From contig CAYJRR010000036.1 of the NCBI GenBank assembly GCA_964372275.1, forward strand, positions 1 to 36,389: 36,389 nt of DNA, written 5' to 3'. Shown in pieces: positions 10,273-36,389 of this stretch. The notes beneath the pieces are model-generated. The model was not told the DNA's origin. It saw only the letters and a program-made list of their open reading frames with translations, and searched no databases. The DNA comes from an uncultured bacterium. GTDB taxonomy: Bacteria; CAYJRR01. Positions within the stretch are counted from its first letter, which is position 1. Every line of letters begins with the position of its first letter. The position numbers were made by a program, and so were the translations under genes.

Positions 10273-11295
10273 TCAGCCGCGCGCGAACAGGCCGCGCTCC
10301 TTCTCGGTGGCGGCGGCGACGACGGCGCGCACGATCCCGTCGACGTCGACGCTGTCGGCCTCCCCTTCGAAGTTGCGCACCATCCGGTGCCGCAAGCACG
10401 GCGCGGCCCCGGCGACGACGTCGTCCGGACCGACGGCGAAGCGCCCGTCGAGAAGCGCCCGCACCCGCGCCACGCGCAGCATCGCCTGGCCGCCGCGCGG
10501 GCTGGCGCCGTATCGCACCGACCGCTTCACCGAGGCGGGGGCCTCGGGGTGCGCCGGGTGCGTCAGCTCCACGATCCGCACCGCCAGGTCGGCCGCGGCG
10601 TCGGTCACCGGCACCCGGCGCACGAAGGCCTGCATCACGCGGAGCGCCTCCGCATCCGCCACCTTCGCCGCCGACGCCTCCTCGGAAAGGTCATCGCGCA
10701 CGAGGATCGTCTTCAGCTCCGCCGCGGTCGGGTACTCCACCTCGATCTTCATCAGGAAGCGGTCGAGCTGCGCCTCCGGGAGCGGGTAGGTCCCCTCCAT
10801 CTCCACCGGGTTCTGGGTGGCGAGGACGTAGAAGGGGGCGCCCAGCGCGTGCGTCTCGTTCCCCAGCGAAACGGTGCGCTCCTGCATCGCCTCCAGCAGC
10901 GCCGACTGCGTCTTGGGGGTGGCCCGGTTCACCTCGTCGGCGAGGACCACCTGGTGGAAGATCGGCCCTTTCTTGAGCTGGAACTCGCGGCGGCCGCGGT
11001 CGTCGACCGTCACCACCTGCGTCCCGAGGATGTCGGCCGGCATCAGGTCGGGGGTGAACTGGATCCGCGCGTAGGAGAGGTCGACGGAACCGGCGAGCGC
11101 GCGGACCATCCGCGTCTTGCCGACCCCCGGCACCCCTTCGAGAAGGACGTGCCCGCCGGCGACGAGCCCCGTCACCAGGGCCCGCACCGCCTCCGTCTGG
11201 CCGACGATCGCCCGGCCGATCTCCCGTTCGATCGAACGGAACGTTTCGGAAAACCGCCGCGCTTCGTCGCGCGCCTTTTCGACTTCATCGCCCAT
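10273..11295 (-). CDS. moxR: MoxR family AAA+ ATPase
   Basis: HVLLEGVPGVGKT (Walker A), RIQFTPDLMPADILG, VLADEVNRATPKTQSALLEAMQE, ATQNPVEMEGTYPLPEAQLDRF, GASPRG. Confidence 0.95.
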   Translation of the reverse strand: MGDEVEKARDEARRFSETFRSIEREIGRAIVGQTEAVRALVTGLVAGGHVLLEGVPGVGKTRMVRALAGSVDLSYARIQFTPDLMPADILGTQVVTVDDRGRREFQLKKGPIFHQVVLADEVNRATPKTQSALLEAMQERTVSLGNETHALGAPFYVLATQNPVEMEGTYPLPEAQLDRFLMKIEVEYPTAAELKTILVRDDLSEEASAAKVADAEALRVMQAFVRRVPVTDAAADLAVRIVELTHPAHPEAPASVKRSVRYGASPRGGQAMLRVARVRALLDGRFAVGPDDVVAGAAPCLRHRMVRNFEGEADSVDVDGIVRAVVAAATEKERGLFARG

Positions 11296-13240: not shown

Positions 13241-14587
13241 ATGAACGGTCGGGTTCGTCGCGCGGTCGTCGCCATCGCCCTTTTCGGATTCACCGCCGGA
13301 GGGGCCGCTTGCGGAGAGTCGTCGGTCGGGACCTCCTCGCGTCCGTCGGACGACGGAGCCCCCTACGCGTCGGCGCTGGCGAGCGTCACCTCCGGGCTCG
13401 CGCCGCTGACCGTCGACTTCACCGGCGTGGCGGCCGATCCCACGACCGGCGGCGACGACGGCGCGTTTTCGTTCGGGTGGACCTTCGGCGACGGCGAGGC
13501 GTCCGACCTCCAGAGCCCGACCCACGTCTACGAGCTCCCCGGCACCTACGTCGCCTCGTTCACCGTCGCAGACGACGACGGCGACAGCTCCACCAGCACC
13601 GTATCGATCTCGGTCGGATCGGCGGAGCAACCGGCGGTGACCGCCGCCGCCGACCGGACCACCGGGATCGCGCCGCTCGACGTGCAGTTCTCGGCGACCG
13701 TCGCCGGCGGCGACGCGCCGGTGCAGCTCACCTGGAGCTTCGGCGACGGCGAGTCGAGTGCGCAGGCCGCCGCCGCGCACACCTTCGGGATCCCCGGCGA
13801 CTACGGCGTCACCGTCACCGCCGTCGACGCCAACGGCGACCTCGCCGAGGCGCGGATCACGATCCAGGTGGCGGCGCCGCAGGTGGCGACCACCCCGGAC
13901 TTGCTGCTCGTCAACGCCGGCTACACCCTCGACCGCTCCGCCGACGCCTACGAACCGAACGACGCCACCCCGTTCGCCCTGGGCAATCCGTTGGACGACG
14001 AGCAGCCGATCGTGCTGACCGGGAAGATCGACCGCACCGCGGTGCAGTACCACGTCGACGTGATCAACGCCGGCGCCGCGGCCGGCGCCTTCGACGTCGA
14101 CCTCTACCCGGGGGCGGTGACGCCCCCGTCGGCGGCGACCGCCGGCGCGCAAAAGTCGGCGGTCCTCTCTCTGGCTTCGAACGGCACGCGGCGGGTCTAC
14201 TTCTTCCTCGACGACGTCACGCCGGGGATCGCGCACCGCGCCTACCTGCGCGTCGACCGGACGAACACCGTCGGCGAGATCGACGAGCAGAACAACCTCT
14301 CGGCCCCCGTCGAGCTGGTGGCGCCGGCCGACGAGGACTGGTTCTCCGTCGACCTGATTGCCGGGCAGACGCTTCGACTCGATCTCGATCAGCTCCCGTT
14401 CGACTACGACCTCGAGCTCTACACCGACGCCAAGCAGCTCCTCGCCTCTTCGCTGCGCGGCGGCACGAGCCCCGAGTCGATCGAGCGAACGGTCTCCATC
14501 ACCGCGCGGTATCGCGTCCGCGTCTTCGGCTACGCCGGCGCCCGCAGCGCCACCCAGCCCTACCGGCTCCGCGTCACCAGCCACTGA
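13241..14587 (+). CDS. Surface lipoprotein with 2 PKD domains + CARDB-like + PPC-like domains
   Basis: Lipobox GAAC. Two G.APL.V.F..W(T/S)FGDG..H.(Y/F)..PG.Y repeats. PDL..VD..N.V.E.DE.NN (CARDB). YEPND, DEDWF and DYDLELY (PPC). Confidence 0.88.
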   Translation: MNGRVRRAVVAIALFGFTAGGAACGESSVGTSSRPSDDGAPYASALASVTSGLAPLTVDFTGVAADPTTGGDDGAFSFGWTFGDGEASDLQSPTHVYELPGTYVASFTVADDDGDSSTSTVSISVGSAEQPAVTAAADRTTGIAPLDVQFSATVAGGDAPVQLTWSFGDGESSAQAAAAHTFGIPGDYGVTVTAVDANGDLAEARITIQVAAPQVATTPDLLLVNAGYTLDRSADAYEPNDATPFALGNPLDDEQPIVLTGKIDRTAVQYHVDVINAGAAAGAFDVDLYPGAVTPPSAATAGAQKSAVLSLASNGTRRVYFFLDDVTPGIAHRAYLRVDRTNTVGEIDEQNNLSAPVELVAPADEDWFSVDLIAGQTLRLDLDQLPFDYDLELYTDAKQLLASSLRGGTSPESIERTVSITARYRVRVFGYAGARSATQPYRLRVTSH

Positions 14588-18170: not shown

Positions 18171-19625
18171 TCAGCGCAGCTCCGGCAACGTCCCCTGCAC
18201 CTCTCCCAGCGCGGCGGTCGGCACCCCGACCGCGTCCATCGCCGTCGCCAGCACCTGCGCGGGATGGCGGCCGGGGGCGACGACGTGGCGGCCGGGCTTC
18301 AAGCCCCCGACGCGACCGGCGAGCAGGCAGGCCATGTTCTCGGTGGAGTGCGCGCTGAACGTCTTCCCCGACGACGGATCGCGGCCGTGGCCCCCTTCGT
18401 GGAGGAAGACGATCGCCGTACGGTGGAGCAGGTTCCCCCCCTCCTCCGGCGTGTCGCGGAGCTTCGCCACCAGGTAGGCGAAGTGTTTCATGTGCCATGC
18501 GATCCCCTTCGAGACTCCGGCCGTCCCGTGGGACGAATGGCCGATCTCGTGCAGGTCGTAGGGGATGCCGGTCAGCGGATGCATGTTCATGTGCGACTGC
18601 GCCATCGTGAACTGCAGCGACGCAACCCGCGTCGAATCGCAGACGAAGGCGTGGTGGATCAGATCACAGAAGGCGCGGGCGCGGGTCTCCTCGTCCGAGT
18701 AGCCGGCGTTCACGTCGAAACCGGAGCCTCCGTTCGAGCTCTGGCCCCCGCCGATCGGCGGGTCCTCCCCCGGGTCGACCGGCGCCTGGCAGGCGCCGCC
18801 GGCCTCGGGCGCGATCGCCTCCACCCGGCGCTCGAGATCGCGCACCTCGTCGAGGTGCCGGGAGAGCCGCGCGCGGTCGGCGCCCCCCAGCTTCGCCACC
18901 AGCCGCTCGGTGTCGGCGGCCACCCGATCGAGGACGCTCTTGCGCTGGCGCAACAGGAACGCGCGGCGCGCCGCCTCGTCCGGGTCGGGCGGGATCCAGC
19001 CGGCGGAGAGCGCCTGGAACGCCGCGCGCGGCGAGACGGTGGCCGGGATCCCCGAAAGCAGGCCGTCGGCGTTCCGCCGGTAGGAGATCATCTCCCGCCC
19101 GCTGGGGGAGCCGACGTTGAGATACCACGAGGCCTGGACGCGATAGACCAGCGACTTGAAGGTGGTGCCGCCGCCGATCGCGTCGGCGACGATCTGGTCG
19201 GAGGTCGGTCCGTTGACCGGCTTCGATCCGGATCGCACCCCCGACAGCAACGGCGAGAGCGACGCGATGTGGAACGAGTCGCTGCGGCCGCCCGCGGGGA
19301 TCGATCCGCCGTTGGCGGTCGGGATCTCCAGCCCCGAGACGACGGTGATCTCGTCCTTCACGTTGCCGTGGTTCGCCAGCGGCGCCAGCGCCGCCTTGAG
19401 GTCGTAGCCGGGTCCGACGACGTCTGGGACGTAGAGGTTGTGGACCGGGTCGTCATCGCCGCCGAGCGACTGGCCGCCGAAGCAGACGAGGAAGCGGTTC
19501 GGGGGGGACGCCGAGGCGGCACGCGCGCGTCGCACCGACCCGGTCATCGCCTCCAGGAACGGCAGGCCGAGGATCGTGCCGCCGATCCCGCGGAGGACGG
19601 CGCGACGAGGCAGCGTGAACCTCAT
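18171..19625 (-). CDS. DUF1552 domain protein (Tat-like signal)
   Basis: MRFTLPRRAVLRGIGG..LGLPFLEAM, TSDQIVA, KSVLD, LG.ADRARL..HLDEVRDLERR, AFVCDSTRVAS, YLVAKL..TPE motifs. ATGA overlap with the upstream gene. Confidence 0.9.
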   Translation of the reverse strand: MRFTLPRRAVLRGIGGTILGLPFLEAMTGSVRRARAASASPPNRFLVCFGGQSLGGDDDPVHNLYVPDVVGPGYDLKAALAPLANHGNVKDEITVVSGLEIPTANGGSIPAGGRSDSFHIASLSPLLSGVRSGSKPVNGPTSDQIVADAIGGGTTFKSLVYRVQASWYLNVGSPSGREMISYRRNADGLLSGIPATVSPRAAFQALSAGWIPPDPDEAARRAFLLRQRKSVLDRVAADTERLVAKLGGADRARLSRHLDEVRDLERRVEAIAPEAGGACQAPVDPGEDPPIGGGQSSNGGSGFDVNAGYSDEETRARAFCDLIHHAFVCDSTRVASLQFTMAQSHMNMHPLTGIPYDLHEIGHSSHGTAGVSKGIAWHMKHFAYLVAKLRDTPEEGGNLLHRTAIVFLHEGGHGRDPSSGKTFSAHSTENMACLLAGRVGGLKPGRHVVAPGRHPAQVLATAMDAVGVPTAALGEVQGTLPELR

Positions 19626-21226
19626 GGCGACACCTCCTCCCGTCGGTAGCCGAACGCCTCGGCCGAGACCACGTCCAGCAGCAGGTCGTCGAAGCGCCCC
19701 GACTCCCGGAACGAGGCTCGCAGCGATGCGAGGTACGGCCCGTCCTCGTACCGCTCCCGCCGCCCCGCCGCGAAGCGGAACAGCTGCGTCACCAGACACG
19801 GCTCGAGGCCGCCGGTCTGGGCGAGCGTCCTCCCGAGCTGCGCCGGACCGTTGAACGGCAGAACCGTTCCGTCCGGCGTCAGGCCGAACAACTCCCCGTC
19901 GCCGGCGATGACGCAGTCGGGCTCGCCGTTGTCGTGCGCGCGCCAACGGCCGGTCTGGTCGTAGTTCTCCAGGCCGAACCCCACCGGATCCATCTGCACG
20001 TGGCACCCGGCGCAGCTCCCCTGATTCCGGTGCTCGGCGTAGCGGTCCCACTTGCACGGCGAGGTGGTGGCGGACGGCGGCTGGTCGACGTCGACGTCGG
20101 GCGGCGGCGGCGGGATGACCTGGCAGAGCAGCCGCTCGCGGATCAGCTTCCCCCGCAGCGTCGGACTGGTATCGCCGAACTTCCCGACCACCGAGAGGAA
20201 GGAGCCGTGGGAGAGGATCCCCGCGCGCTCGCCGGGCCCGGCATACGGCGTCCACGCGAAACCGGTCGCCGGGGCGGGCATGCCGTAGAGCGCGGCGAGC
20301 GTGGCGTCGAGGTAGGTCTCGCCGAGGGTGAACAGCTCGGTCCAGGGCCGCCGCTCGCCGAAGACGATCCGCTCGACCAGCGCCGCCGTCTCGGTCCTCA
20401 TCGACGCGGTCAGGGCGGCGTCGTGCGGCAACTGGTGGTAGCCGAGCCACATCGCGTGGAACCGCTCGACGCGGGCCCGCGCCCGCGGATCGGCGAGGAG
20501 CCGGATCGCGGCCTGGCGGACATCGGCGGGCCGGCGCAACTTGCCGCGGTCGGCGAGATCGAGCAGGGCCTCGTCGGGCGTCGTTCCCCAGAGGAGGAAG
20601 GAGAGGCGGGCCGCGACCTCGTGGTCGTTCAAGCGACGTACGGCCGGGTGTCGCGCCACCGGCCGTCCGATCTCCACCCGGTAGAGGAACTCCGGATGCT
20701 GGAGGAGCGCGCGAACGACCATCCCGGCGGAGATGTAGAAATCGCCGCCCTCGACCGCGAACGACCGGAAGGCGAGGTAGCGGTCGATCTCCGCGTCGGA
20801 GAGCGAACGCCTCAGGGCGAGCCGCCCGAAGCGGGAGATGAACGACCGCAGGCACGCGGCGTCCGACGGTCCGGACGGCACGCATCCGACGACCGCGTCG
20901 CGTTTCGCGGGATCGGCGAGGAGCCGGTCGGCCGCCTCGGTGGCGAGGGTCTCCGCCGCCTCGATCAGGACGGCCGACGGCTGCTGCGTCGTGTAGTCGT
21001 TGTCGAACGGGTCGACGACGTCCTCCGGCAGCTTCGCGAATCCGGAACGGGACTCGTCGAAGAGGAGGTCGCGCACCGTGTGGTCGTACTCGTGGCGCGA
21101 CAGCCGTCGCGCCCCGCTGGGGCCGACGCCGGACGGGACGTCCGGGCCCTCCGGACGTTCCCGCGTGCAGGCCGCCGCCGCCAGACCGAGCGCCGCGATC
21201 GCCGCGATCGATGCGATGTGCCTCAT
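19622..21226 (-). CDS. DUF1592/DUF1588/DUF1595/DUF1587/DUF1585 lipoprotein with CxxCH
   Basis: Lipobox AAAC. RRLSRHEYDHTVRDL, LLQHPEFLYRVE, VAARLSFLLWGTTPD, RAGIL, TSPTLRGK..ERLLC..PPPPP, CAGCH..MDPVGFGLENYD motifs. Confidence 0.92.
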   Translation of the reverse strand: MRHIASIAAIAALGLAAAACTRERPEGPDVPSGVGPSGARRLSRHEYDHTVRDLLFDESRSGFAKLPEDVVDPFDNDYTTQQPSAVLIEAAETLATEAADRLLADPAKRDAVVGCVPSGPSDAACLRSFISRFGRLALRRSLSDAEIDRYLAFRSFAVEGGDFYISAGMVVRALLQHPEFLYRVEIGRPVARHPAVRRLNDHEVAARLSFLLWGTTPDEALLDLADRGKLRRPADVRQAAIRLLADPRARARVERFHAMWLGYHQLPHDAALTASMRTETAALVERIVFGERRPWTELFTLGETYLDATLAALYGMPAPATGFAWTPYAGPGERAGILSHGSFLSVVGKFGDTSPTLRGKLIRERLLCQVIPPPPPDVDVDQPPSATTSPCKWDRYAEHRNQGSCAGCHVQMDPVGFGLENYDQTGRWRAHDNGEPDCVIAGDGELFGLTPDGTVLPFNGPAQLGRTLAQTGGLEPCLVTQLFRFAAGRRERYEDGPYLASLRASFRESGRFDDLLLDVVSAEAFGYRREEVSP

Positions 21227-21274
21227 GCGGCGGAAGGCTCGCACGGGCGATCGCGTCACCCGGTTCCGAAAAAA

Positions 21275-22525: not shown

Positions 22526-23911
22526 ATGGTTCGCCAGGGATCGATCAGGGGAGTTGCGGTGGGGGTCGGGACGGCGTGGATCGCCGCCCTGTCGGCGTGC
22601 GGAGTGCAGACGTCCGAAAACAGCCGCGTCCGGATCGAGTCGATCTCTCCGGCCTCCTCGTCCATCACCGGCGGCGTGACGGTGACGCTGGTCGGAAAAG
22701 GGTTCGACGACGGTGACGAAGCTCCGGAGGTCTACTTCGGGGAGAGCCTGGCGCAGGTCGTGTCGGTCACCGAGAACACCCTCACCGTGACGCTGCCGGC
22801 GGGAATGACCTGCGGCCCGGTGAACGTCCAGGTGACCAACGGCAACGGTTCGGGATACCGCGAGGACGGCTTCTCCTACATCGGCGGCGACACTTCGCTT
22901 ACCGTGACGTCGATCAACCCGCCGACCGGGCAGATCGGCGGCGGCACCGACGTGACGATCGAGGGCTCGGGCTTCTCCGGCGGCGTCGGCGTTTCGCTGG
23001 GCGGCCTGCCGCTGATCAACATCCAGATCCAGGGGGACACCCGCCTCACCGCGCGGATCCCGACCCGCGAGGCCGGAGGGCGATTCGACCTGGTGATCCG
23101 CAACTGCGCTTCCCAGGCGTCGCTCCCCGCCGCCTTCACCTACACCTCGGGCTTGAACGGCGCGCTGATCGACCTGCCGCTGTTCGACTACGTCAATCCA
23201 TCCCAGTTCGGAAACCCGGCGCCGCAGGACCTGATCGATCCGTTCGTGGCGTTCGTCGAGCCGACCGCCACGGCGCTGACCAATCCGCTGCCGCCGACGA
23301 TCGACACCTGCCGCTTCAACGCGCCGGTGCAGAGCGCGCCCGATCTCGCGGTGATCGCGCTCGGCGACCAGGTATCGCTCTCCAGCGGCGGGCAGTCGAT
23401 GACGATCGACAAGCAGTCGGACGACCTCTACTACTACGCCGCGACCGACAACTCGGTCTACGCCACCAGCCGCTTCGTGCCGGGCGGCCGCTACAACTTC
23501 GGGTCGACCGGCGATGGCGAGACCGAGCCGTTCTCGGTCACCGACGCCTTCACCGCGCCGTCGAACTACCAGGTCTCGAGCCCGGACATCGACAACACCG
23601 ATCCGACGATCGTCCCCCGCTCCCAGATGCAGTGGAGCTGGACGGCGACGACGCCGGGCGATTTCTTCGAGATCCTCCTCATCGGCTACTCGAACGCCGG
23701 GACCGAGACGAACGAGGTCCTCTCCTGCTACGTGCGGGACGACGGAAACTTCCTGATCCCGACGAACGAGATCAACAAGTTCAGCGGAAGCACCACGCAG
23801 CTGGTGGTGCTGTCGAACCGGCGGAAGGATTCGGAGTTCCTCGTCCCTGCGAACGGGAGCAAGGGACGGGCGGTGGTCTCGCTCTACAAGGTGGGATACC
23901 TGCGCTTTTGA
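22526..23911 (+). CDS. IPT/TIG-domain lipoprotein with a C-terminal beta-rich domain
   Basis: Lipobox LSAC. Two repeats of SI.P..(S/G)...GG..VT..G.GF..FTY/FSY. Confidence 0.85.
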   Translation: MVRQGSIRGVAVGVGTAWIAALSACGVQTSENSRVRIESISPASSSITGGVTVTLVGKGFDDGDEAPEVYFGESLAQVVSVTENTLTVTLPAGMTCGPVNVQVTNGNGSGYREDGFSYIGGDTSLTVTSINPPTGQIGGGTDVTIEGSGFSGGVGVSLGGLPLINIQIQGDTRLTARIPTREAGGRFDLVIRNCASQASLPAAFTYTSGLNGALIDLPLFDYVNPSQFGNPAPQDLIDPFVAFVEPTATALTNPLPPTIDTCRFNAPVQSAPDLAVIALGDQVSLSSGGQSMTIDKQSDDLYYYAATDNSVYATSRFVPGGRYNFGSTGDGETEPFSVTDAFTAPSNYQVSSPDIDNTDPTIVPRSQMQWSWTATTPGDFFEILLIGYSNAGTETNEVLSCYVRDDGNFLIPTNEINKFSGSTTQLVVLSNRRKDSEFLVPANGSKGRAVVSLYKVGYLRF

Positions 23912-24076: not shown

Positions 24077-24127
24077 GTTGAACGCGCCCCCAAACCGGAC
24101 ACGTCGAACCCAGGAGTGCAACATCCC

Positions 24128-25720
24128 ATGAATCGTCTTCTTCGAGTCGCTTCGTTCGGGCTCCTCACCGTCCTGACCGCCGCTTGCGGCGCGAGCACCG
24201 CCAGCAAGGAGGGCACCTCCGACCCGCAGCCGGACGACGACCAGCCGGTCGTCTCCGCGGCCGCGAGCGTCACCTCGGGTGTCGCGCCGCTCGACGTCGA
24301 GTTCACCGGCGTGGCCGCCGGGGGCGACGGCGACCTCGAGTTCCTGTGGGAGTTCGGAGACGGCGAGACCTCCGACGACCAGAACCCCAGCTACGTCTAC
24401 GCGATGAACGGGACGTTCGTCGCGACCTTCACCGCCACCGACGAGGACGGCGACTTCGCCACCGCGACGGTGACGATCTCCGTCGGCTCGGCGAGCGCCC
24501 CGGCGGTGACGGCGGGGGCCGACCAGACCTCCGGCGTCGCGCCGCTCAACGTCCAGTTCACCTCGACGGTCGTCGGCGGCGATGCGCCGGTGACGGTGGC
24601 GTGGAACTTCGGCGACGGCGAGACCTCGGCGGCCGCCAATCCGCTGCACACCTACCTCACCCCCGGCACCTACGGCGCGACGGTCACCGCGACCGACGCC
24701 ACCGGCGACATGGCCTCGGCGACGGTGCTGATCACCGTCGGCTCGGACAGCAAGCCGGTGATCTCGATCGGCGCGACGCCGACCTCGGGGCCGGCTCCGC
24801 TCAACGTCGCCTTCACCTCGATGGCCGCCGGCGGCGATGCGCCGCTGGCCTACGCCTGGGATTTCGGCGACGGCACGACGGGCAATACCGCCAACGTCAA
24901 CCACATCTACAACATGAACGGCTCCTACGCCGCCAAGGTGGTGGTGACCGACGCCAACGGCGACACCGCGCAGGCCACGGTCACGATCGTGGTCAACGAC
25001 AACCAGAACAACGCCACCAAGCCCGACCTCCAGCTCGCCAACTTCGGCTCGTTCGAGTCGGGCCTGGCCGACGACTACGAACCGAACGACGAGGCGGCCT
25101 ACTACCTGGGCGACTACGGCACCGGAAACGCGCTCTACACGGTCGACAACGCCTACATCGACCCGGTCGACGTCACCTACTTCATCGACGTCGTCAACTT
25201 CGGCGCGGCCCTCAACACCCCGTTCGACGTCGACTTCTACCGCAACAGCCCGAGCTCGCCGGGCGCGACGGTGCTGGGCGACGACTACGAGACGGTGACC
25301 AACCTGGGTTCCAACGGTTCGACGCGGCTCTACTTCACCGTCACCGACTTCACCCCGGGGATGACCAACCGCTCCTACGTCCGCGTCGACACCTTCGACG
25401 AGATCGAAGAGTCGGTCGAGGACAACAACCTCACCGCCGGGATGGACGTGACCGTCGACGGCGACGACGACTGGTTCGCCGTCTACGAGCAGAGCGGCTG
25501 GACGCTCCAGATCGACCTCGACATGCTGCCGAAGGACTACGACCTCGAGCTGTACTCCGAGGACGGCGACCTGTTGGCCTCGTCGGGGAACGGCTCGACG
25601 ACGCCGGAGGCGATCGACTACACCGCGACCTACAACGGCCTCTACTTCGTGCGCGTCTTCGGCTACAACGGCGCGCGGGATTCGACCACGCCGTACCGGC
25701 TGAAGGTGCTCGTTCCGTAG
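24128..25720 (+). CDS. Surface lipoprotein with 3 PKD domains + CARDB-like + PPC-like domains (paralog of 13241..14587)
   Basis: AGGAG RBS, lipobox TAAC. Three SG.APL.V.F..W.FGDG repeats. KPDL, YEPND, VDTFDEIEESVEDNN, DDDWF, DYDLELY motifs. Confidence 0.9.
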   Translation: MNRLLRVASFGLLTVLTAACGASTASKEGTSDPQPDDDQPVVSAAASVTSGVAPLDVEFTGVAAGGDGDLEFLWEFGDGETSDDQNPSYVYAMNGTFVATFTATDEDGDFATATVTISVGSASAPAVTAGADQTSGVAPLNVQFTSTVVGGDAPVTVAWNFGDGETSAAANPLHTYLTPGTYGATVTATDATGDMASATVLITVGSDSKPVISIGATPTSGPAPLNVAFTSMAAGGDAPLAYAWDFGDGTTGNTANVNHIYNMNGSYAAKVVVTDANGDTAQATVTIVVNDNQNNATKPDLQLANFGSFESGLADDYEPNDEAAYYLGDYGTGNALYTVDNAYIDPVDVTYFIDVVNFGAALNTPFDVDFYRNSPSSPGATVLGDDYETVTNLGSNGSTRLYFTVTDFTPGMTNRSYVRVDTFDEIEESVEDNNLTAGMDVTVDGDDDWFAVYEQSGWTLQIDLDMLPKDYDLELYSEDGDLLASSGNGSTTPEAIDYTATYNGLYFVRVFGYNGARDSTTPYRLKVLVP

Positions 25721-28665: not shown

Positions 28666-28689
28666 CGATCCGAGCGGCGAGAATCGGTG

Positions 28690-28717
28690 TTGACCGCGAT
28701 TCGCGCGCGACTACTAT
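28690..28717 (+). promoter_or_regulatory. Near-consensus sigma70 promoter of the histone gene
   Basis: TTGACC-N16-TACTAT, followed by an AT-rich leader and GGAGG RBS (28746-28750). Confidence 0.7.
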
Positions 28718-28754
28718 ACGAGGGTTTTTTCCACGGAAAAGAATCGGAGGGGCG

Positions 28755-28964
28755 ATGGCGAAGAAGGGCGGAAAGAAGGCGGGCAAGGGCGGCGCGGCGT
28801 TCGTCGTCGGTTCCAAGGTGAAGGACGCGATCAAGAAGGCCGGGCTCCGGACCGCCGGCGACGCCATCGACGCGCTCAACGGCATGGTCGACTGGCACAT
28901 CAAGCGCGCCGTCGAGCGCGCCAAGTCGAACGGGCGGCAGACGATCCGTCCCTCCGACTTCTAG
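28755..28964 (+). CDS. Bacterial histone-fold protein (singlet) with a Lys/Gly-rich N-terminal tail
   Basis: 69 aa: VVGSKVKDAIK..G.RTAGDAIDALN..V...I.RAVERA..NGRQTIRPSDF, including the RxTxxxxD histone-fold signature. Resembles Leptospira/Bdellovibrio histones. Good RBS and promoter. Confidence 0.92.
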   Translation: MAKKGGKKAGKGGAAFVVGSKVKDAIKKAGLRTAGDAIDALNGMVDWHIKRAVERAKSNGRQTIRPSDF

Positions 28965-28967
28965 GGG

Positions 28968-29038
28968 TTCGGGGAGGCCCCGAGGAAGCCCGAAGGGCGG
29001 TCCGATTCGGGGAGTCCCCGAGGAAGCCCGAAGGGCGG
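28968..29038. repeat. Tandem pair of 33-bp double-hairpin units (REP-like) between convergent genes
   Basis: TTCGGGGAG(G/T)CCCCGAGGAAGCCCGAAGGGCGG at 28968-29000 and 29006-29038 (32/33 identical). Confidence 0.9.
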
Positions 29039-29086
29039 ATCGTCACGCGGCCGTGTGGGCCCCGCGAATGCGGGGCCAACGTACCT

Positions 29087-29740
29087 CTACGCCGGGCGGG
29101 CGACGACGACCCACAGCGTCGACAGGAAGCGGAACTTGGCGTGGATCTCCTCCACGCGCAGTCCCGCCGACTCCAGCATCGCGCGCAGCTGACGCTGGCT
29201 CATCCAGAGCGGGCTCGTCTTTCCGCGCGCCCGCTTCACCAGGTGCTTCAGCGCGTACTTGTCGACGTTGAAGGTGAGCACGACCGGTCCGCGGGAGACG
29301 CGCGCCAGCTCGCGGAAGACGCGGGGGCGCGACTCCGGCGGGATCAGGTGGAAGAAGCGGACGGTAAGCGTCCCGTCGATCGAGCCGTCGGGGAACGGCA
29401 GGTGCTCGGCATCGCACGCCTGGAACCCGAGCAGCCCGTCGGGCCGGCCGTCGATCTTGCGACGCGCCTCGGCGATCATCTCCCGCGAGATGTCGGCTCC
29501 GACAACCCGGTAGCCCTCGCGCAGGAGGAACTGCGTGAATCGCCCGGTTCCGCACGGGAGATCGAGCACGATCCCCCCCTTGGGGATGCCGCGCAGCGCC
29601 CGCCGCAACGTGCGCTCGTGGAGGATCTGCTTGATCCGGCCGCGGAACAGGCCCTGGTAACGGAGACGGTCGTACCCGCCCGCCATCTGCGGATCGCGAT
29701 ACATCGTCTTCCAGAAGCCGGTGTTCCTCTCGCCCTTCAC
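29087..29740 (-). CDS. Class I SAM-dependent methyltransferase
   Basis: VLDLPCGTGR, VVGADISREM, CDAEHLPFPDGSID, RFFHL, ELARV motifs. GAGGAG RBS immediately after the uvrC stop. Confidence 0.9.
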   Translation of the reverse strand: MKGERNTGFWKTMYRDPQMAGGYDRLRYQGLFRGRIKQILHERTLRRALRGIPKGGIVLDLPCGTGRFTQFLLREGYRVVGADISREMIAEARRKIDGRPDGLLGFQACDAEHLPFPDGSIDGTLTVRFFHLIPPESRPRVFRELARVSRGPVVLTFNVDKYALKHLVKRARGKTSPLWMSQRQLRAMLESAGLRVEEIHAKFRFLSTLWVVVARPA

Positions 29741-29749
29741 GGCCGCTCC

Positions 29750-31615
29750 TCAGCCTTTCGATTCCGGGTGGAAATGACGGTGGACCGCTTCGGCCGCGGC
29801 GCGCGTCATCGAGGGGGCCTTCGTGAGCTCCTCGACCGTCGCCTCCGCCACCCGGCGCGCGCTGCCGAAGGCGGCGAGCAGCGCGCGGCGGCGAGTCTCC
29901 CCGATCCCGGGCACGAGGTCGAGCGCCGATCGCAGCGTCGAGGCGCCGCGGGTCTGCCGGTGGAAGGCGATGGCGAAGCGGTGCGCCTCGTCGCGGATCC
30001 GCTGCAGGAGGAACAGCCCGCCGCGCTCGCGCTGGAACGGGACCGGGTTGGCGCGACCCGGCACGAAGACCCGCTCCTCCGCCGACCCTTTCGCCTTTCC
30101 GTGCGCCGGGTCCTTGGCCAACGCCGCCAGACGCACCCCGGCGATCCCGAGCTCGGCGAGCACCGCCTCCGCGATCCCGAGCTGCCCCTTCCCCCCGTCG
30201 ACGACGAGCAGGTCGGGAAGCGCCCACGTCCCCTCGTTGGCCGGTGCGAGCGCGGATCGGCGGAAGCGGCGGGAGAGCACCTCGCGCATCATCGAAAAGT
30301 CGGACAGTTCCTGGCCGGCGGCGCGCACCGTTTCCAGGTCCCGGACGTGGAATCGGCGGTAGAGCTCCTTCGTCGGCTTGCCGTCGACGAAGACGACCAC
30401 CGCCCCCACCGGCGCCTTTCCCTGGATCGTCGACAGGTCGACGCACTCGATCCGCGCCGGCGGCCCTTCCAGGTCGAGCGCCCGCGCCACGCTCTCCAGG
30501 TCGCGGCGCGCCGAGGCCGAGGCGTCGAATGCGCGGCGGAAGGCGCTCGCCGCGTTGGCGTCGGCGAGCTTCACCAGGTCGCGCTTCCCCCCTCGCTGCG
30601 GCGTGCGCACCTCGACCTTCGTCCCGCGCGTCCGCGAGAGCAGCTCCTGCATCACCTCCACCTCCGGCGTCTCGCGCGGCAGCAACGCCTCCGGCGGGAT
30701 CTCGCGCGTGCCGTAGTACTGGAGCAGGAAGCTGGAGAGGAGCTCGTCGTCGGCGGCGGCGGTCTCCTCGAAAACGAACGTCTGCGTGCCGACCAGGCGC
30801 CCGCCGCGGATCGAGAGCGCCGCGATGACGCCGCGCTCCCCTTCGCGATGCAGACCGAAGACGTCGCGGTCGGCCTCCTCGTGGGTGGTGAGCTTCTGCT
30901 CCTCGAGCACCCGCTCCACCGCTTGCAGCCGATCGCGCAGCCGCGCCGCCTTTTCGAACGACTGCGCCTCCGCGGCGGCCCGCATCTCCGACTCCAGCCG
31001 CTCCAGGAGCTCGGCGTTCTTCCCCCGCAGGAAGAGGTCGACCTGCTCGACGAGCCGCCGGTACTCCTCGCGCGACACGTAGTCGACGCACGGCGCGACG
31101 CAGCGCCCGATCTGGTACTCGAGGCACGGACGGGTGCGGTGGTAGAGCATCGTGTCTTCGCAGGTGCGTAGCGGGAACGTGCGCCGCAGGAACCGAAGCG
31201 TCTCCCGCACCGACCCGGCCGAGGAGTACGGCCCGTAGGTGAGGCTCGCCTTGTCAGGCTTCGGCCGCCGAACCACCGACAGCATCGGCCACTCGTGCCC
31301 CGCGTTGATCCGCAACGAGACGAACTCCTTGTCGTCGCGCAGCCGGAGGTTGTAGCGGGGCTGGTGCTTCTTGATCAGCGTGTTCTCGAGGAGCAGCGCC
31401 TCGGCTTCGTTGTCGGTGACGGTCGTCTCGACGGCGGCCGTCTTCGCCACCAGGAAGGCGACGGTCGGCCGCTCGTCGCCGCCGGCGAAGTACTGCCGCA
31501 CGCGGGAGCGGAGGCTCGCCGCCTTGCCGACGTAGATCACCCGGCCGGAGGCGTCGCGGAAGAGGTAGACGCCGGGGGAGGTGGGAAGGGTGTCGATGTC
31601 GACGGGGGATGTCAT
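29750..31615 (-). CDS. uvrC: Excinuclease ABC subunit C
   Basis: GIY-YIG-like LPTSPGVYLF..IYVGKA, EALLLEN.LIK..PRYN, CLEYQIGRCVAPC, UVR domain FEKAARLRD, RIECVDLS, PDLLVVDGGKGQ, RIRDEAHRFAI, HhH PGIG. Confidence 0.97.
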   Translation of the reverse strand: MTSPVDIDTLPTSPGVYLFRDASGRVIYVGKAASLRSRVRQYFAGGDERPTVAFLVAKTAAVETTVTDNEAEALLLENTLIKKHQPRYNLRLRDDKEFVSLRINAGHEWPMLSVVRRPKPDKASLTYGPYSSAGSVRETLRFLRRTFPLRTCEDTMLYHRTRPCLEYQIGRCVAPCVDYVSREEYRRLVEQVDLFLRGKNAELLERLESEMRAAAEAQSFEKAARLRDRLQAVERVLEEQKLTTHEEADRDVFGLHREGERGVIAALSIRGGRLVGTQTFVFEETAAADDELLSSFLLQYYGTREIPPEALLPRETPEVEVMQELLSRTRGTKVEVRTPQRGGKRDLVKLADANAASAFRRAFDASASARRDLESVARALDLEGPPARIECVDLSTIQGKAPVGAVVVFVDGKPTKELYRRFHVRDLETVRAAGQELSDFSMMREVLSRRFRRSALAPANEGTWALPDLLVVDGGKGQLGIAEAVLAELGIAGVRLAALAKDPAHGKAKGSAEERVFVPGRANPVPFQRERGGLFLLQRIRDEAHRFAIAFHRQTRGASTLRSALDLVPGIGETRRRALLAAFGSARRVAEATVEELTKAPSMTRAAAEAVHRHFHPESKG

Positions 31616-31663
31616 CTGTCGTGCGCGGGAGGCGGTGCAATCGCGGCCGGGACCGGGGGCGCG

Positions 31664-31807
31664 ACCGAGGCCGAAACCGTAGCCGTTTCCGTGTCCGTAG
31701 CCGAAGCCGTATCCGTAGCCGAAAACGATCCGATCCCGAACCCGTATCCGTTCCCTTCCGACTCCGACTCCGGCTCCCTTCCACCGGGCCCACGGGGAAG
31801 GGAGCCG
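31664..31807. repeat. Degenerate hexamer tandem array (NCCGWN) followed by a 12-bp hairpin related to 25733-25801
   Basis: accgag gccgaa accgta gccgtt tccgtg tccgta gccgaa gccgta tccgta gccgaa..., then CGGCTCCCTTCC / 13 nt / GGAAGGGAGCCG. Confidence 0.8.
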
Positions 31808-31988
31808 TCGTGCGGCGAGCCATTTCGGAAACTCCCGAGGGAAGACGGCGGCGATCCCCTCGTACGCGCCGAGGGCGAGGCGGCCGATCCGCCCGGGCGC
31901 GGCGGAGGGGGTGAAAAGTTGCCATTCGCCGGGCGTGCGATGCCCCATCCGCACGGACCGATACAACGCAAAATCAGCTACTTATCCA

Positions 31989-35794: not shown

Positions 35795-36389
35795 TCAGCT
35801 CTCCTCGTAGACGGCCAGCGCCTTCCCCTCCAGCTCCTTGATCCTGTCGCGCAAGACGGCGGCGCGCTCGAAGTCGAGGGCTTTCGACGCGTCGAGCATC
35901 TCCTCGCGGAGCTTCTCGACGCGCTTGGGGATCTCGCGGGCGGGGAGGTACTCCCCCTTCTTCTCGGCGGCGAGCGGCACCGTCACGTAGTCGGCCTCAT
36001 AGACCGAGCCGAGCACGTCGCGGATCTCCTTCGTCACCGACTGCGGCGTGATGCCGTGCGCGCGGTTGTAGGCGAGCTGCTTCTCGCGGCGGCGCGCCGT
36101 CTCCCCGAGCGCCTCGCGCATCGACCCGGTCTCGTGGTCGGCGTAGAGGATCACGCGCCCGTTCACGTTGCGCGCGGCGCGGCCGATCGTCTGGATGAGC
36201 GACCGGCCGCTCCGCAGGAACCCCTCCTTGTCGGCGTCGAGCACCGCCACCAGCGACACCTCGGGGATGTCGAGCCCCTCGCGCAGCAGGTTGATCCCAA
36301 CCAGCACGTCGAACGTCCCGAGGCGCAGGTCGCGCAGGATCTCCATCCGCTCCACGGTGTCGATGTCCGAGTGCAGGTAGCGGACCTTC
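35795..36389 (-). CDS. uvrB: Excinuclease ABC subunit B, C-terminal part (5' end outside the window)
   Basis: [84 protein letters not shown] domain [11 protein letters not shown]. Confidence 0.98.

Follow-up and report, generated by a model that had tools for sequence, protein, structure and literature searches.

A tailed alpha3-truncated bacterial histone from a deep-branching uncultured lineage, with a most likely convergent likeness to the histone H4 tail

Bacterial histones have been the subject of structural study only since 2023. Among those that have been solved, HLp of Leptospira perolatii is a stable tetramer that wraps approximately 60 bp of DNA with no sequence specificity (PMC12701072). 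The HLp tetramer is held together by contacts in which R49, S52 and N53 of one chain meet R55, T61 and F63 of its partner, and R49, N53 and R55 are residues that the predicted tetrameric bacterial face-to-face (FtF) histones conserve (PMC12701072). The FtF family logo shows a conserved R48 and N52 at the end of helix 2; the bacterial dimer histones are without both, and for them no confident multimer above the dimer is predicted (PMC11390915). Here we describe a histone gene on a 36,389-nt stretch of DNA, hereafter the window, which is contig CAYJRR010000036.1 of an uncultured bacterium (assembly GCA_964372275.1). Its 69-residue product (the query) is a bona fide bacterial histone with a tail. 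It belongs to the FtF kind, which is already known, and basic tails such as its own are familiar from that family. We analyzed its fold, its likely assembly and the conservation of its tail, which bears a local likeness to the N-terminal tail of eukaryotic histone H4.

Based on a phmmer search of the PDB, the closest solved protein is HLp (9qt0, E = 1.2e-9 over query residues 15-69), followed by HBb (Bd0055) of Bdellovibrio bacteriovorus at 2.8e-5 and by Asgard/archaeal histones at approximately 7e-4. A database search returned 20 relatives, which together with the query make up a 21-row clade alignment. The profile of this alignment matched HLp at 4.1e-16, HBb at 1.1e-8 and the archaeal FtF histone HTkC at 4e-7, and no eukaryotic histone in the PDB at E <= 1e-3. 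An AlphaFold2 model was built from a 95-row alignment (chosen from 122 proteins of up to 100 aa, with rows carrying long extensions unlike a tail excluded). Its mean predicted local distance difference test (pLDDT) value is 80.4, and residues 1-12 fall below 50. When the model was compared with solved structures using Foldseek, 9qt0_A ranked first (E = 5.5e-5, template-modelling score TMt 0.91, root-mean-square deviation (rmsd) 0.9 Å, 47% identity), HBb and then HTkC came next, and the top 50 were all histones or histone-fold proteins. Eukaryotic H4 chains were matched at E >= 0.1, with a template-modelling (TM) score of approximately 0.49 and 18% identity. A phage origin of the histone was considered and is unsupported, with no match in PHROGs at E <= 0.1.

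The modelled chain is a helix-loop-helix-loop-helix with a long central helix, and its modelled dimer interface spans residues 14-69. Alpha3-truncated histones are defined by a helix 3 of three to four residues and a shortened helix 2 (PMC11390915). In the model, helix 3 covers residues 66-68 and is followed only by the terminal F69, and helix 2 is 22 residues long. The R-x-T-x-x-x-x-D motif reads R61-Q-T-I-R-P-S-D68; R61, T63 and D68 are invariant in the 21 rows, and T63 and D68 also in the 95 rows. By equivalence to R55 and D62 of HLp, R61 and D68 would form an RD clamp. On sequence and model, then, the protein is an alpha3-truncated bacterial histone. A previous annotation of the window made from its letters (the sequence-only reading) had called the product a bacterial histone-fold protein, which the PDB search, the AlphaFold2 model and Foldseek bear out; the same comparisons assign its class as alpha3-truncated and of the FtF type, with HLp as the closest solved structure. 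It is the sole histone match in the 4.64-Mb genome, and is therefore present in a single copy.

We next mapped the residues of the HLp interface onto the query, following sections 7 and 9 of PMC12701072. In the PDB phmmer alignment, query numbering equals native HLp numbering plus 6. The six HLp interface residues correspond to R55, S58, N59, R61, S67 and F69, of which five are identical and one is a Thr-to-Ser replacement. R55, N59 and R61 are invariant in the clade alignment and at least 90% conserved over the 95 rows; the query thus carries the Arg and Asn that close helix 2 in FtF histones, together with the further Arg (R61) that marks them, whereas in HBb the R55 and N59 positions are occupied by S and D. 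A model of four copies scored an ipSAE of 0.86 (0.87, 0.86 and 0.86 in separate runs) compared with 0.02 for the best control, with a contact agreement of at least 89% and a partner pLDDT of at least 82; in calibration, 20 of 30 proteins with a solved pair structure attained the ipSAE mark, as did one of the 23 whose structure is a single chain. In addition to a handshake dimer, the model contains a second interface formed by residues 54-55, 58-59, 61 and 65-68, matching that of HLp. Residues 1-13 are missing from the confident modelled interfaces. Because the six interface residues are kept or conservatively replaced and the four-copy model rebuilds the HLp interface, we class the protein among the bacterial FtF histones and would expect it to act like HLp. 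It does not fit the bacterial dimer group, given that it holds both FtF residues and that a tetramer is confidently predicted.

HLp contacts DNA through A13, S14, K15, K17, K21, T27, G29, T56 and T57 (PMC12701072). Seven of these nine residues are identical in the query (S20, K21, K23, K27, T33, G35 and T63), and the remaining two are changed, A13 to G19 and T56 to Q62.

The translation of the open reading frame (ORF) starts MAKKGGKKAGKGGAAFVVGSKVK and has RQTIRPSDF at its C-terminus; it contains the VVGSKVK, the RQTIRPSD and, at residues 4-14, the KGGKKAGKGGA of the sequence-only reading. Its ATG is the earliest ATG, GTG or TTG downstream of an in-frame stop that lies 54 codons upstream. Further along the frame, start codons recur only at codon 22 (GTG) and at codon 44 (ATG), and each of these falls within the conserved fold and among residues that are invariant in the relatives. 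A GGAGG sequence stands before the ATG (Table 1), and GGAGGG precedes the ATG of a histone relative on a metagenome contig (locus L013). The GC content at third codon positions (GC3) amounts to 0.93 over tail codons 2-15 and to 0.96 over the core, with a genome-wide GC of 70%. Support for the start is good because it is the first available, is preceded by GGAGG, has a high GC3 in the tail codons, and is followed by an M-A-K/T-K tail in 19 of the 20 relatives. Judged from the DNA and its relatives, the 69-aa ORF is real and its start sound. The promoter candidate of Table 1 was observed once compared with 0.1 sites expected in shuffled sequences. Metagenome contigs from two public runs of two studies, covering positions 28677-28963 (X3) and 28681-28899 (X2), show no differences from the window, although one of these runs may be its source sample.

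The tail contributes substantially to the charge of the protein. The core holds 11 Lys and Arg versus six Asp and Glu (+5), and the full protein 16 versus six (+10 per chain). Nineteen of the 20 relatives are 71-80% identical to the query, and all of these have the M-A-K/T-K tail; the other relative (P0021) is 62% identical and tail-less. Tail length ranges from 12 to 17 residues across the clade. The number of tail lysines is five in 16 of the 19 tailed relatives and four in the other three, 17 of 20 sequences have a Lys at the fifth position ahead of the fold, and K-G-G immediately before helix 1 is a kept feature of the clade. An acidic residue, Glu or Asp, occurs once before the fold in 18 of the 19 and is missing from the query. 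In relatives with a tail of the same length, KAAKKAAKGGE or KAGKKAAKGGE takes the place of the query's KGGKKAGKGGA. The tail DNA consists of AAG, GGC and GCG triplets both in the window and in L013, and changes of tail length by a slippage-type process would thus be plausible.

Across these sequences the clade keeps the number of lysines and the junction motif and does not keep the residue order. A kept charge and junction combined with a free order and length is the pattern that an electrostatic role would predict, and it points to such a role for the tail. The suggestion that a lysine-rich tail is translated and shared within the clade is thus supported, with 19 of 20 relatives tailed. Conservation of a GKGG-type tail held for the five lysines and the K-G-G junction, and failed for residue order and length.

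Basic tails have already been described for bacterial FtF histones (PMC11390915). In our data, 36 of 110 singlet representatives of the family have a basic tail of low complexity; these 110 remained from a list of 150 once 40 of at least 110 aa had been set aside, and many sequences lie behind each cluster. The query, the 20 relatives and the 110 representatives were placed in a quick tree (131 singlets), which implies 28 gains or losses of a basic tail, compared with a mean of 42.8 when the tail labels were shuffled and with none of 500 shuffles as low. The query falls in a group of 23 rows, 21 of them tailed, that adjoins tail-less sequences. It should be noted that only two of the 128 inner branches of this tree are well supported, so it is indicative only. 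The sequence-only reading also held that the characterised bacterial histones lack such a tail. This is right for HBb and does not hold for the Leptospira type; the opening 6-7 residues of HLp cannot be seen in its crystals (PMC12701072).

Two other architectures were seen in the family. The top-scoring relatives in a library clustered at 50% identity (P0022-P0032 and others) are doublets of 118-132 aa with two FtF-like folds per chain, each half being approximately 44-51% identical to the query; one doublet cluster (P0025, 25 members) bears the source label 'archaeon'. Seven further members (P0029, P0038, P0039, P0055, P0069, P0108 and P0121) have an N-terminal hydrophobic segment that resembles a signal peptide or membrane anchor. 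In these the segment is followed by a conserved S-K-P-K-E-I-V-V-V-G-S-K-V-K and then by the histone fold, an arrangement that would put a fold of the DNA-binding type outside the cytoplasm. The terms 'signal peptide', 'secreted' and 'periplasm' each occur zero times in the main text of PMC11390915, and that text mentions transmembrane histones only as forms without DNA-binding residues.

Tail residues 4-14 match the H4 11-mer of residues 5-15 at nine of 11 ungapped positions and share its K(i, i+3, i+7) spacing. The 11-mer was taken as the sequence-only reading quotes it, and on that 11-mer its count and its K5/K8/K12 spacing are confirmed. The acetylated positions of H4 are K5, K8, K12 and K16 (PMC6136690). 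The 19 close relatives match the same 11-mer at three to seven positions, none of 170 other family proteins exceeds seven, and the spacing recurs in eight of the 19. Nine or more matches were reached by 0.10% of 200,000 shuffles of the query tail and by 0.038% of random 14-mers drawn from the tail composition of the clade. A search of the PDB with the 24-aa N-terminal piece found nothing at E <= 10, and the tail is therefore not linkable to H4 by sequence search. Kinship to H4 is not indicated by the rest of the protein either, since its fold stands no nearer to H4 than to other nucleosomal histones.

Because the main difference in relatives of the same tail length is an Ala in place of a query Gly, the likeness comes down to a few Ala-to-Gly exchanges, and it is most likely a convergence within low-complexity sequence. 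Given the many K/G/A tails, a very large scan and four core-histone tails as possible targets, nine of 11 is within expectation. The headline claim that the tail mimics that of H4 is thus not supported, with relatives at 3-7 of 11 and a fold without special kinship to H4, while the accompanying caution that K/G-rich sequence may converge by chance agrees with the absence of the likeness elsewhere in the clade. We found no description of an H4-like tail on a bacterial histone in the literature, which is not proof that none is in print; the term 'H4-like' occurs zero times in the main text of PMC11390915, and Supplementary Figures 13, 19 and 20 of that article, which present alignments of FtF tails, may include such tails.

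The reading that we consider probable is that of an HLp-like nucleoid-associated FtF histone with an electrostatic tail arm, in which the order of tail residues is unselected and the likeness to H4 is specific to this lineage. Two chains would form a handshake dimer, and two dimers would join into a tetramer at the end of helix 2, at loop 2 and at the one-turn helix 3. By analogy to HLp, DNA would be expected to wrap this tetramer without sequence specificity. A disordered basic arm of 14-15 residues would emerge beside the start of helix 1, where DNA is contacted: the last tail residue lies four positions ahead of G19-S20-K21, the counterparts of the A13-S14-K15 'paired end of helices' contacts of HLp (PMC12701072). 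With the arm, the net charge of the chain would double, +5 becoming +10, and a tetramer would gain 20 lysines. The job of the arm is most likely electrostatic, with added contacts to wrapped or neighbouring DNA that may raise affinity, compaction or bridging. Selection would act on the charge and the K-G-G junction rather than on residue order, and the likeness of nine in 11 would be a state of this lineage reached through Ala/Gly exchanges in a fast-evolving low-complexity segment.

Several points weigh against this reading. DNA wrapping, the role of the tail and the abundance of the protein in the cell are all extrapolated from sequence and models. The tail mechanism has no experimental precedent that we found in this family, and the passages of PMC12701072 cited here do not examine a role for the HLp tail. 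Because the genome has four HU/IHF-family genes, the histone need not be the main nucleoid protein, unlike in Leptospira. A Pfam search returned nothing at E <= 1, and the NCBIfam archaeal-histone model scored 18.9 bits against a cut-off of 50. Nine matches in 11 are rare under the composition-matched nulls, which makes pure chance an uncomfortable explanation for this sequence alone. The ipSAE calibration was based on two copies and the model has four, and the tetramer score may stem from the model having memorised the solved HLp tetramer, a sign of likeness and not of binding. Such a memory of 9QT0 would also suit an HBb-like dimer that bends or coats DNA, with the predicted tetramer as a modelling artefact, and HBb is indeed the second-best solved relative (E = 2.8e-5, Foldseek TM 0.74-0.86). 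We find this explanation unlikely, given that the query keeps R55 and N59, which bacterial dimer histones lack (PMC11390915) and HBb replaces with S and D, that HLp beats HBb by approximately four orders of magnitude with the single sequence and approximately seven with the clade profile, and that the second modelled interface uses exactly the HLp residues. It is far less probable still that the tail lies outside the protein, either through a downstream translation start or because the ORF is a chance frame in DNA of 70% GC. Spurious ORFs are common in high-GC DNA, and 26 ORFs of at least 40 aa overlap the same 3-kb stretch. However, starting at codon 22 or 44 would remove invariant fold residues, the actual ATG has its Shine-Dalgarno sequence and a tail GC3 of 0.93 behind it, and the tails of the relatives stay in frame through their length changes. 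These observations rule against the start downstream of the tail that the sequence-only reading had named as its own weak point.

A different account of the tail makes it a functional analogue of that of H4, in which Lys 4, 7/8 and 11 would be reversibly acetylated or methylated and would switch DNA compaction in the manner of K5/K8/K12. The match of nine in 11 with its lysine spacing, rare under the composition nulls, and the five lysines kept in 16 of 19 relatives would fit this account, as would one HDAC-family gene in the genome and a class I S-adenosylmethionine-dependent methyltransferase gene that is convergent with the histone gene and 123 nt downstream. Lysine acetylation is known on bacterial nucleoid proteins, for example on mycobacterial HU. 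Against this, residue order is unconserved (3-7 of 11 in the relatives, with the spacing in eight of 19), and no SET or SIR2 domain gene was found in the genome (4.64 Mb, 225 contigs, 94.6% complete). MYST and bromodomain genes were not found there either, a weak blank given that these models matched none of 14 control genomes, and the HDAC family was matched in nine of the 14, so that its presence is unspecific. The methyltransferase is of the generic Methyltransf_25/11 type and was undetected beside the histone in the sole checkable relative locus (320 nt of flank). No connection ties any of the genes found to the histone. Past its residue 15 the H4 tail goes on to K16 and the basic patch, for which the query presumably has no counterpart, as its A14-A15 run straight into helix 1. 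We hold an H4 analogue to be quite unlikely. A looser idea, which we also doubt, is that in this lineage the FtF tail, with its five lysines and its K-G-G junction, is a charge-counted regulatory module whose reversible acetylation, enzymatic or by acetyl-phosphate, tunes wrapping or bridging. If true, a counterpart of histone-tail regulation would have evolved independently in bacteria, with the H4-like order of this genome as a convergence on one physical solution.

The gene is a clean tailed FtF histone from a lineage without close genome relatives. It illustrates how a low-complexity segment may come to match the H4 tail strikingly over a short stretch in the absence of common descent or conservation, and such a match without conservation is therefore no evidence for a eukaryote-like histone code in bacteria. 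The main value of the gene is as a test case for the function of FtF histone tails.

Table 1 Coordinates of the histone gene, its parts and other features of the window
Feature	Position	Strand	Details
Histone gene	28755..28964	+	69 aa, 7.2 kDa, isoelectric point 10.6
Disordered Lys/Gly/Ala tail AKKGGKKAGKGGAA, codons 2-15	28758..28799	+	5 Lys, 0 acidic; pLDDT <50 for residues 1-12
Alpha3-truncated histone fold, codons 16-69	28800..28961	+	Helix 1 19-28, helix 2 37-58, one-turn helix 3 66-68; carries putative RD clamp R61/D68 and predicted tetramer residues R55, S58, N59, R61, S67, F69
Shine-Dalgarno GGAGG	28746..28750	+	Read from the sequence, 4 nt before ATG
Sigma-70-like promoter candidate TTGACC-16 nt-TACTAT	28690..28717	+	~38 nt upstream of ATG; consensus match alone
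Two tandem ~38-nt GC-rich palindromic repeats, resembling repetitive extragenic palindromic (REP) elements	28963..29038	.	Directly after the histone stop codon
8-bp GC hairpin GGCCCCGC-GAAT-GCGGGGCC	29058..29077	.	Between the convergent histone and methyltransferase genes
uvrC ORF	29750-31966	-	Listed from first start TTG; GIY-YIG domain matches from residue 131
Other gene	10273-11295	-	
Other gene	13241-14587	+	
Other gene	19622-21259	-	
Other gene	22526-23911	+	
Other gene	24116-25720	+	
Other gene	35795-36355	-	

The histone gene sits in a deep-branching uncultured lineage, because the best UvrC matches beyond metagenome contigs of the lineage are approximately 50% identical and carry names from several phyla, and because the genome was the sole member of its phylum in a phylum-level search. 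The 40 genomes compared are all related at the domain level only, and five of them contain a distant histone match. Around the histone gene lie genes for a divergent TPR protein, a PD40 beta-propeller protein and the methyltransferase (on the opposite strand), as well as uvrC. A scan of metagenome contigs gave four short loci, and synteny was checkable in one relative (L013), where the TPR neighbour is conserved beside the histone (49% identity over 194 aa). A scan of genome contigs with the clade alignment gave a single locus (L012), which was rejected as fortuitous because it falls within a repetitive protein of very large size. UvrC homologs of 57-69% identity are encoded on contigs whose lengths (9329, 18461, 4900 and 22225) equal those of contigs with histone relatives, so that uvrC may be linked to the histone in the relatives as well.

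Downstream of the histone gene, the approximately 38-nt repeat of Table 1 is dispersed in the genome and often paired (45 blastn-short hits on 32 contigs). The summed metagenome contig depth is 45-300 at the repeat versus 3-9 over the gene, with many loose ends. Copies at C3:83102-83757 lie approximately 0.5-1.2 kb downstream of an HU gene (C3:82310-82579). The predicted RNA fold of region 28962-29090 has an energy of -75.7 kcal/mol (z = -4.0, none of 200 shuffles as stable). The GC hairpin is likely a terminator or an mRNA-stabilising structure; it has no T run, and no canonical T-run terminator was found in this region.

The uvrC ORF has approximately 120 residues ahead of its GIY-YIG domain, including a Gly/Tyr/Phe-rich stretch, and the database call is 732 aa; its true start is probably further downstream. 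The six other genes of Table 1 encode a MoxR-type AAA ATPase, PKD- and TIG-domain proteins, a PSD2-5/PSCyt3-domain (DUF1585-1595) protein and the end of UvrB. The uvrB C-terminal end is approximately 4 kb from uvrC.

Among known systems, HLp (PDB 9QT0-9QT2; PMC12701072) is the closest, with the alpha3-truncated fold, the RD clamp and the tetramer residues common to both proteins. Both have a short disordered N-terminal segment, that of HLp being the residues unseen in the crystals, and the query tail is longer (approximately 14 residues), purely Lys/Gly/Ala and equipped with five lysines. The query genome encodes four HU/IHF proteins, whereas the Leptospira species described are without HU, and the neighbours also differ, with the TPR protein, the methyltransferase and uvrC by the query and smc and map by the Leptospira histone (PMC12701072). 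HBb (PDB 8CMP, 8FVX and 9EZZ) has the same alpha3-truncated fold at 38% identity and an rmsd of approximately 0.9 Å, and shares with the query SKVK at the start of helix 1 and the R-x-T-x-x-x-x-D motif. It differs in acting as a DNA-bending dimer (PMC12701072) and in having just five residues before the matched fold.

The tailed archaeal histones of Heimdallarchaeota and Huberarchaea are, like the query, prokaryotic proteins with Lys-bearing N-terminal tails (PMC6136690). These tails are H4-like in length and composition, with some lysines at H4 positions. Unlike the query, these histones are of the nucleosomal type with a full helix 3, form hypernucleosomes, and have their tails modelled between the DNA gyres (PMC6136690). 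The eukaryotic H4 tail and the query tail are both disordered, basic and N-terminal to a histone fold; the H4 tail sits on the H3-H4 nucleosome core, whereas the query tail would sit on a tetramer of other geometry. Lys/Ala-rich arms that add non-specific DNA affinity are found at the C-terminus of mycobacterial HupB, at the N-terminus of Deinococcus HU and in chlamydial Hc1. Like the query tail, these arms are low-complexity, disordered and attached to small DNA-binding cores. Unlike it, they are carried on HU or H1-like folds, are usually longer and bear AKKA/PAKK repeats, and the longer tails of the family (P0058, P0064 and P0120) are nearer to them than the query tail is.

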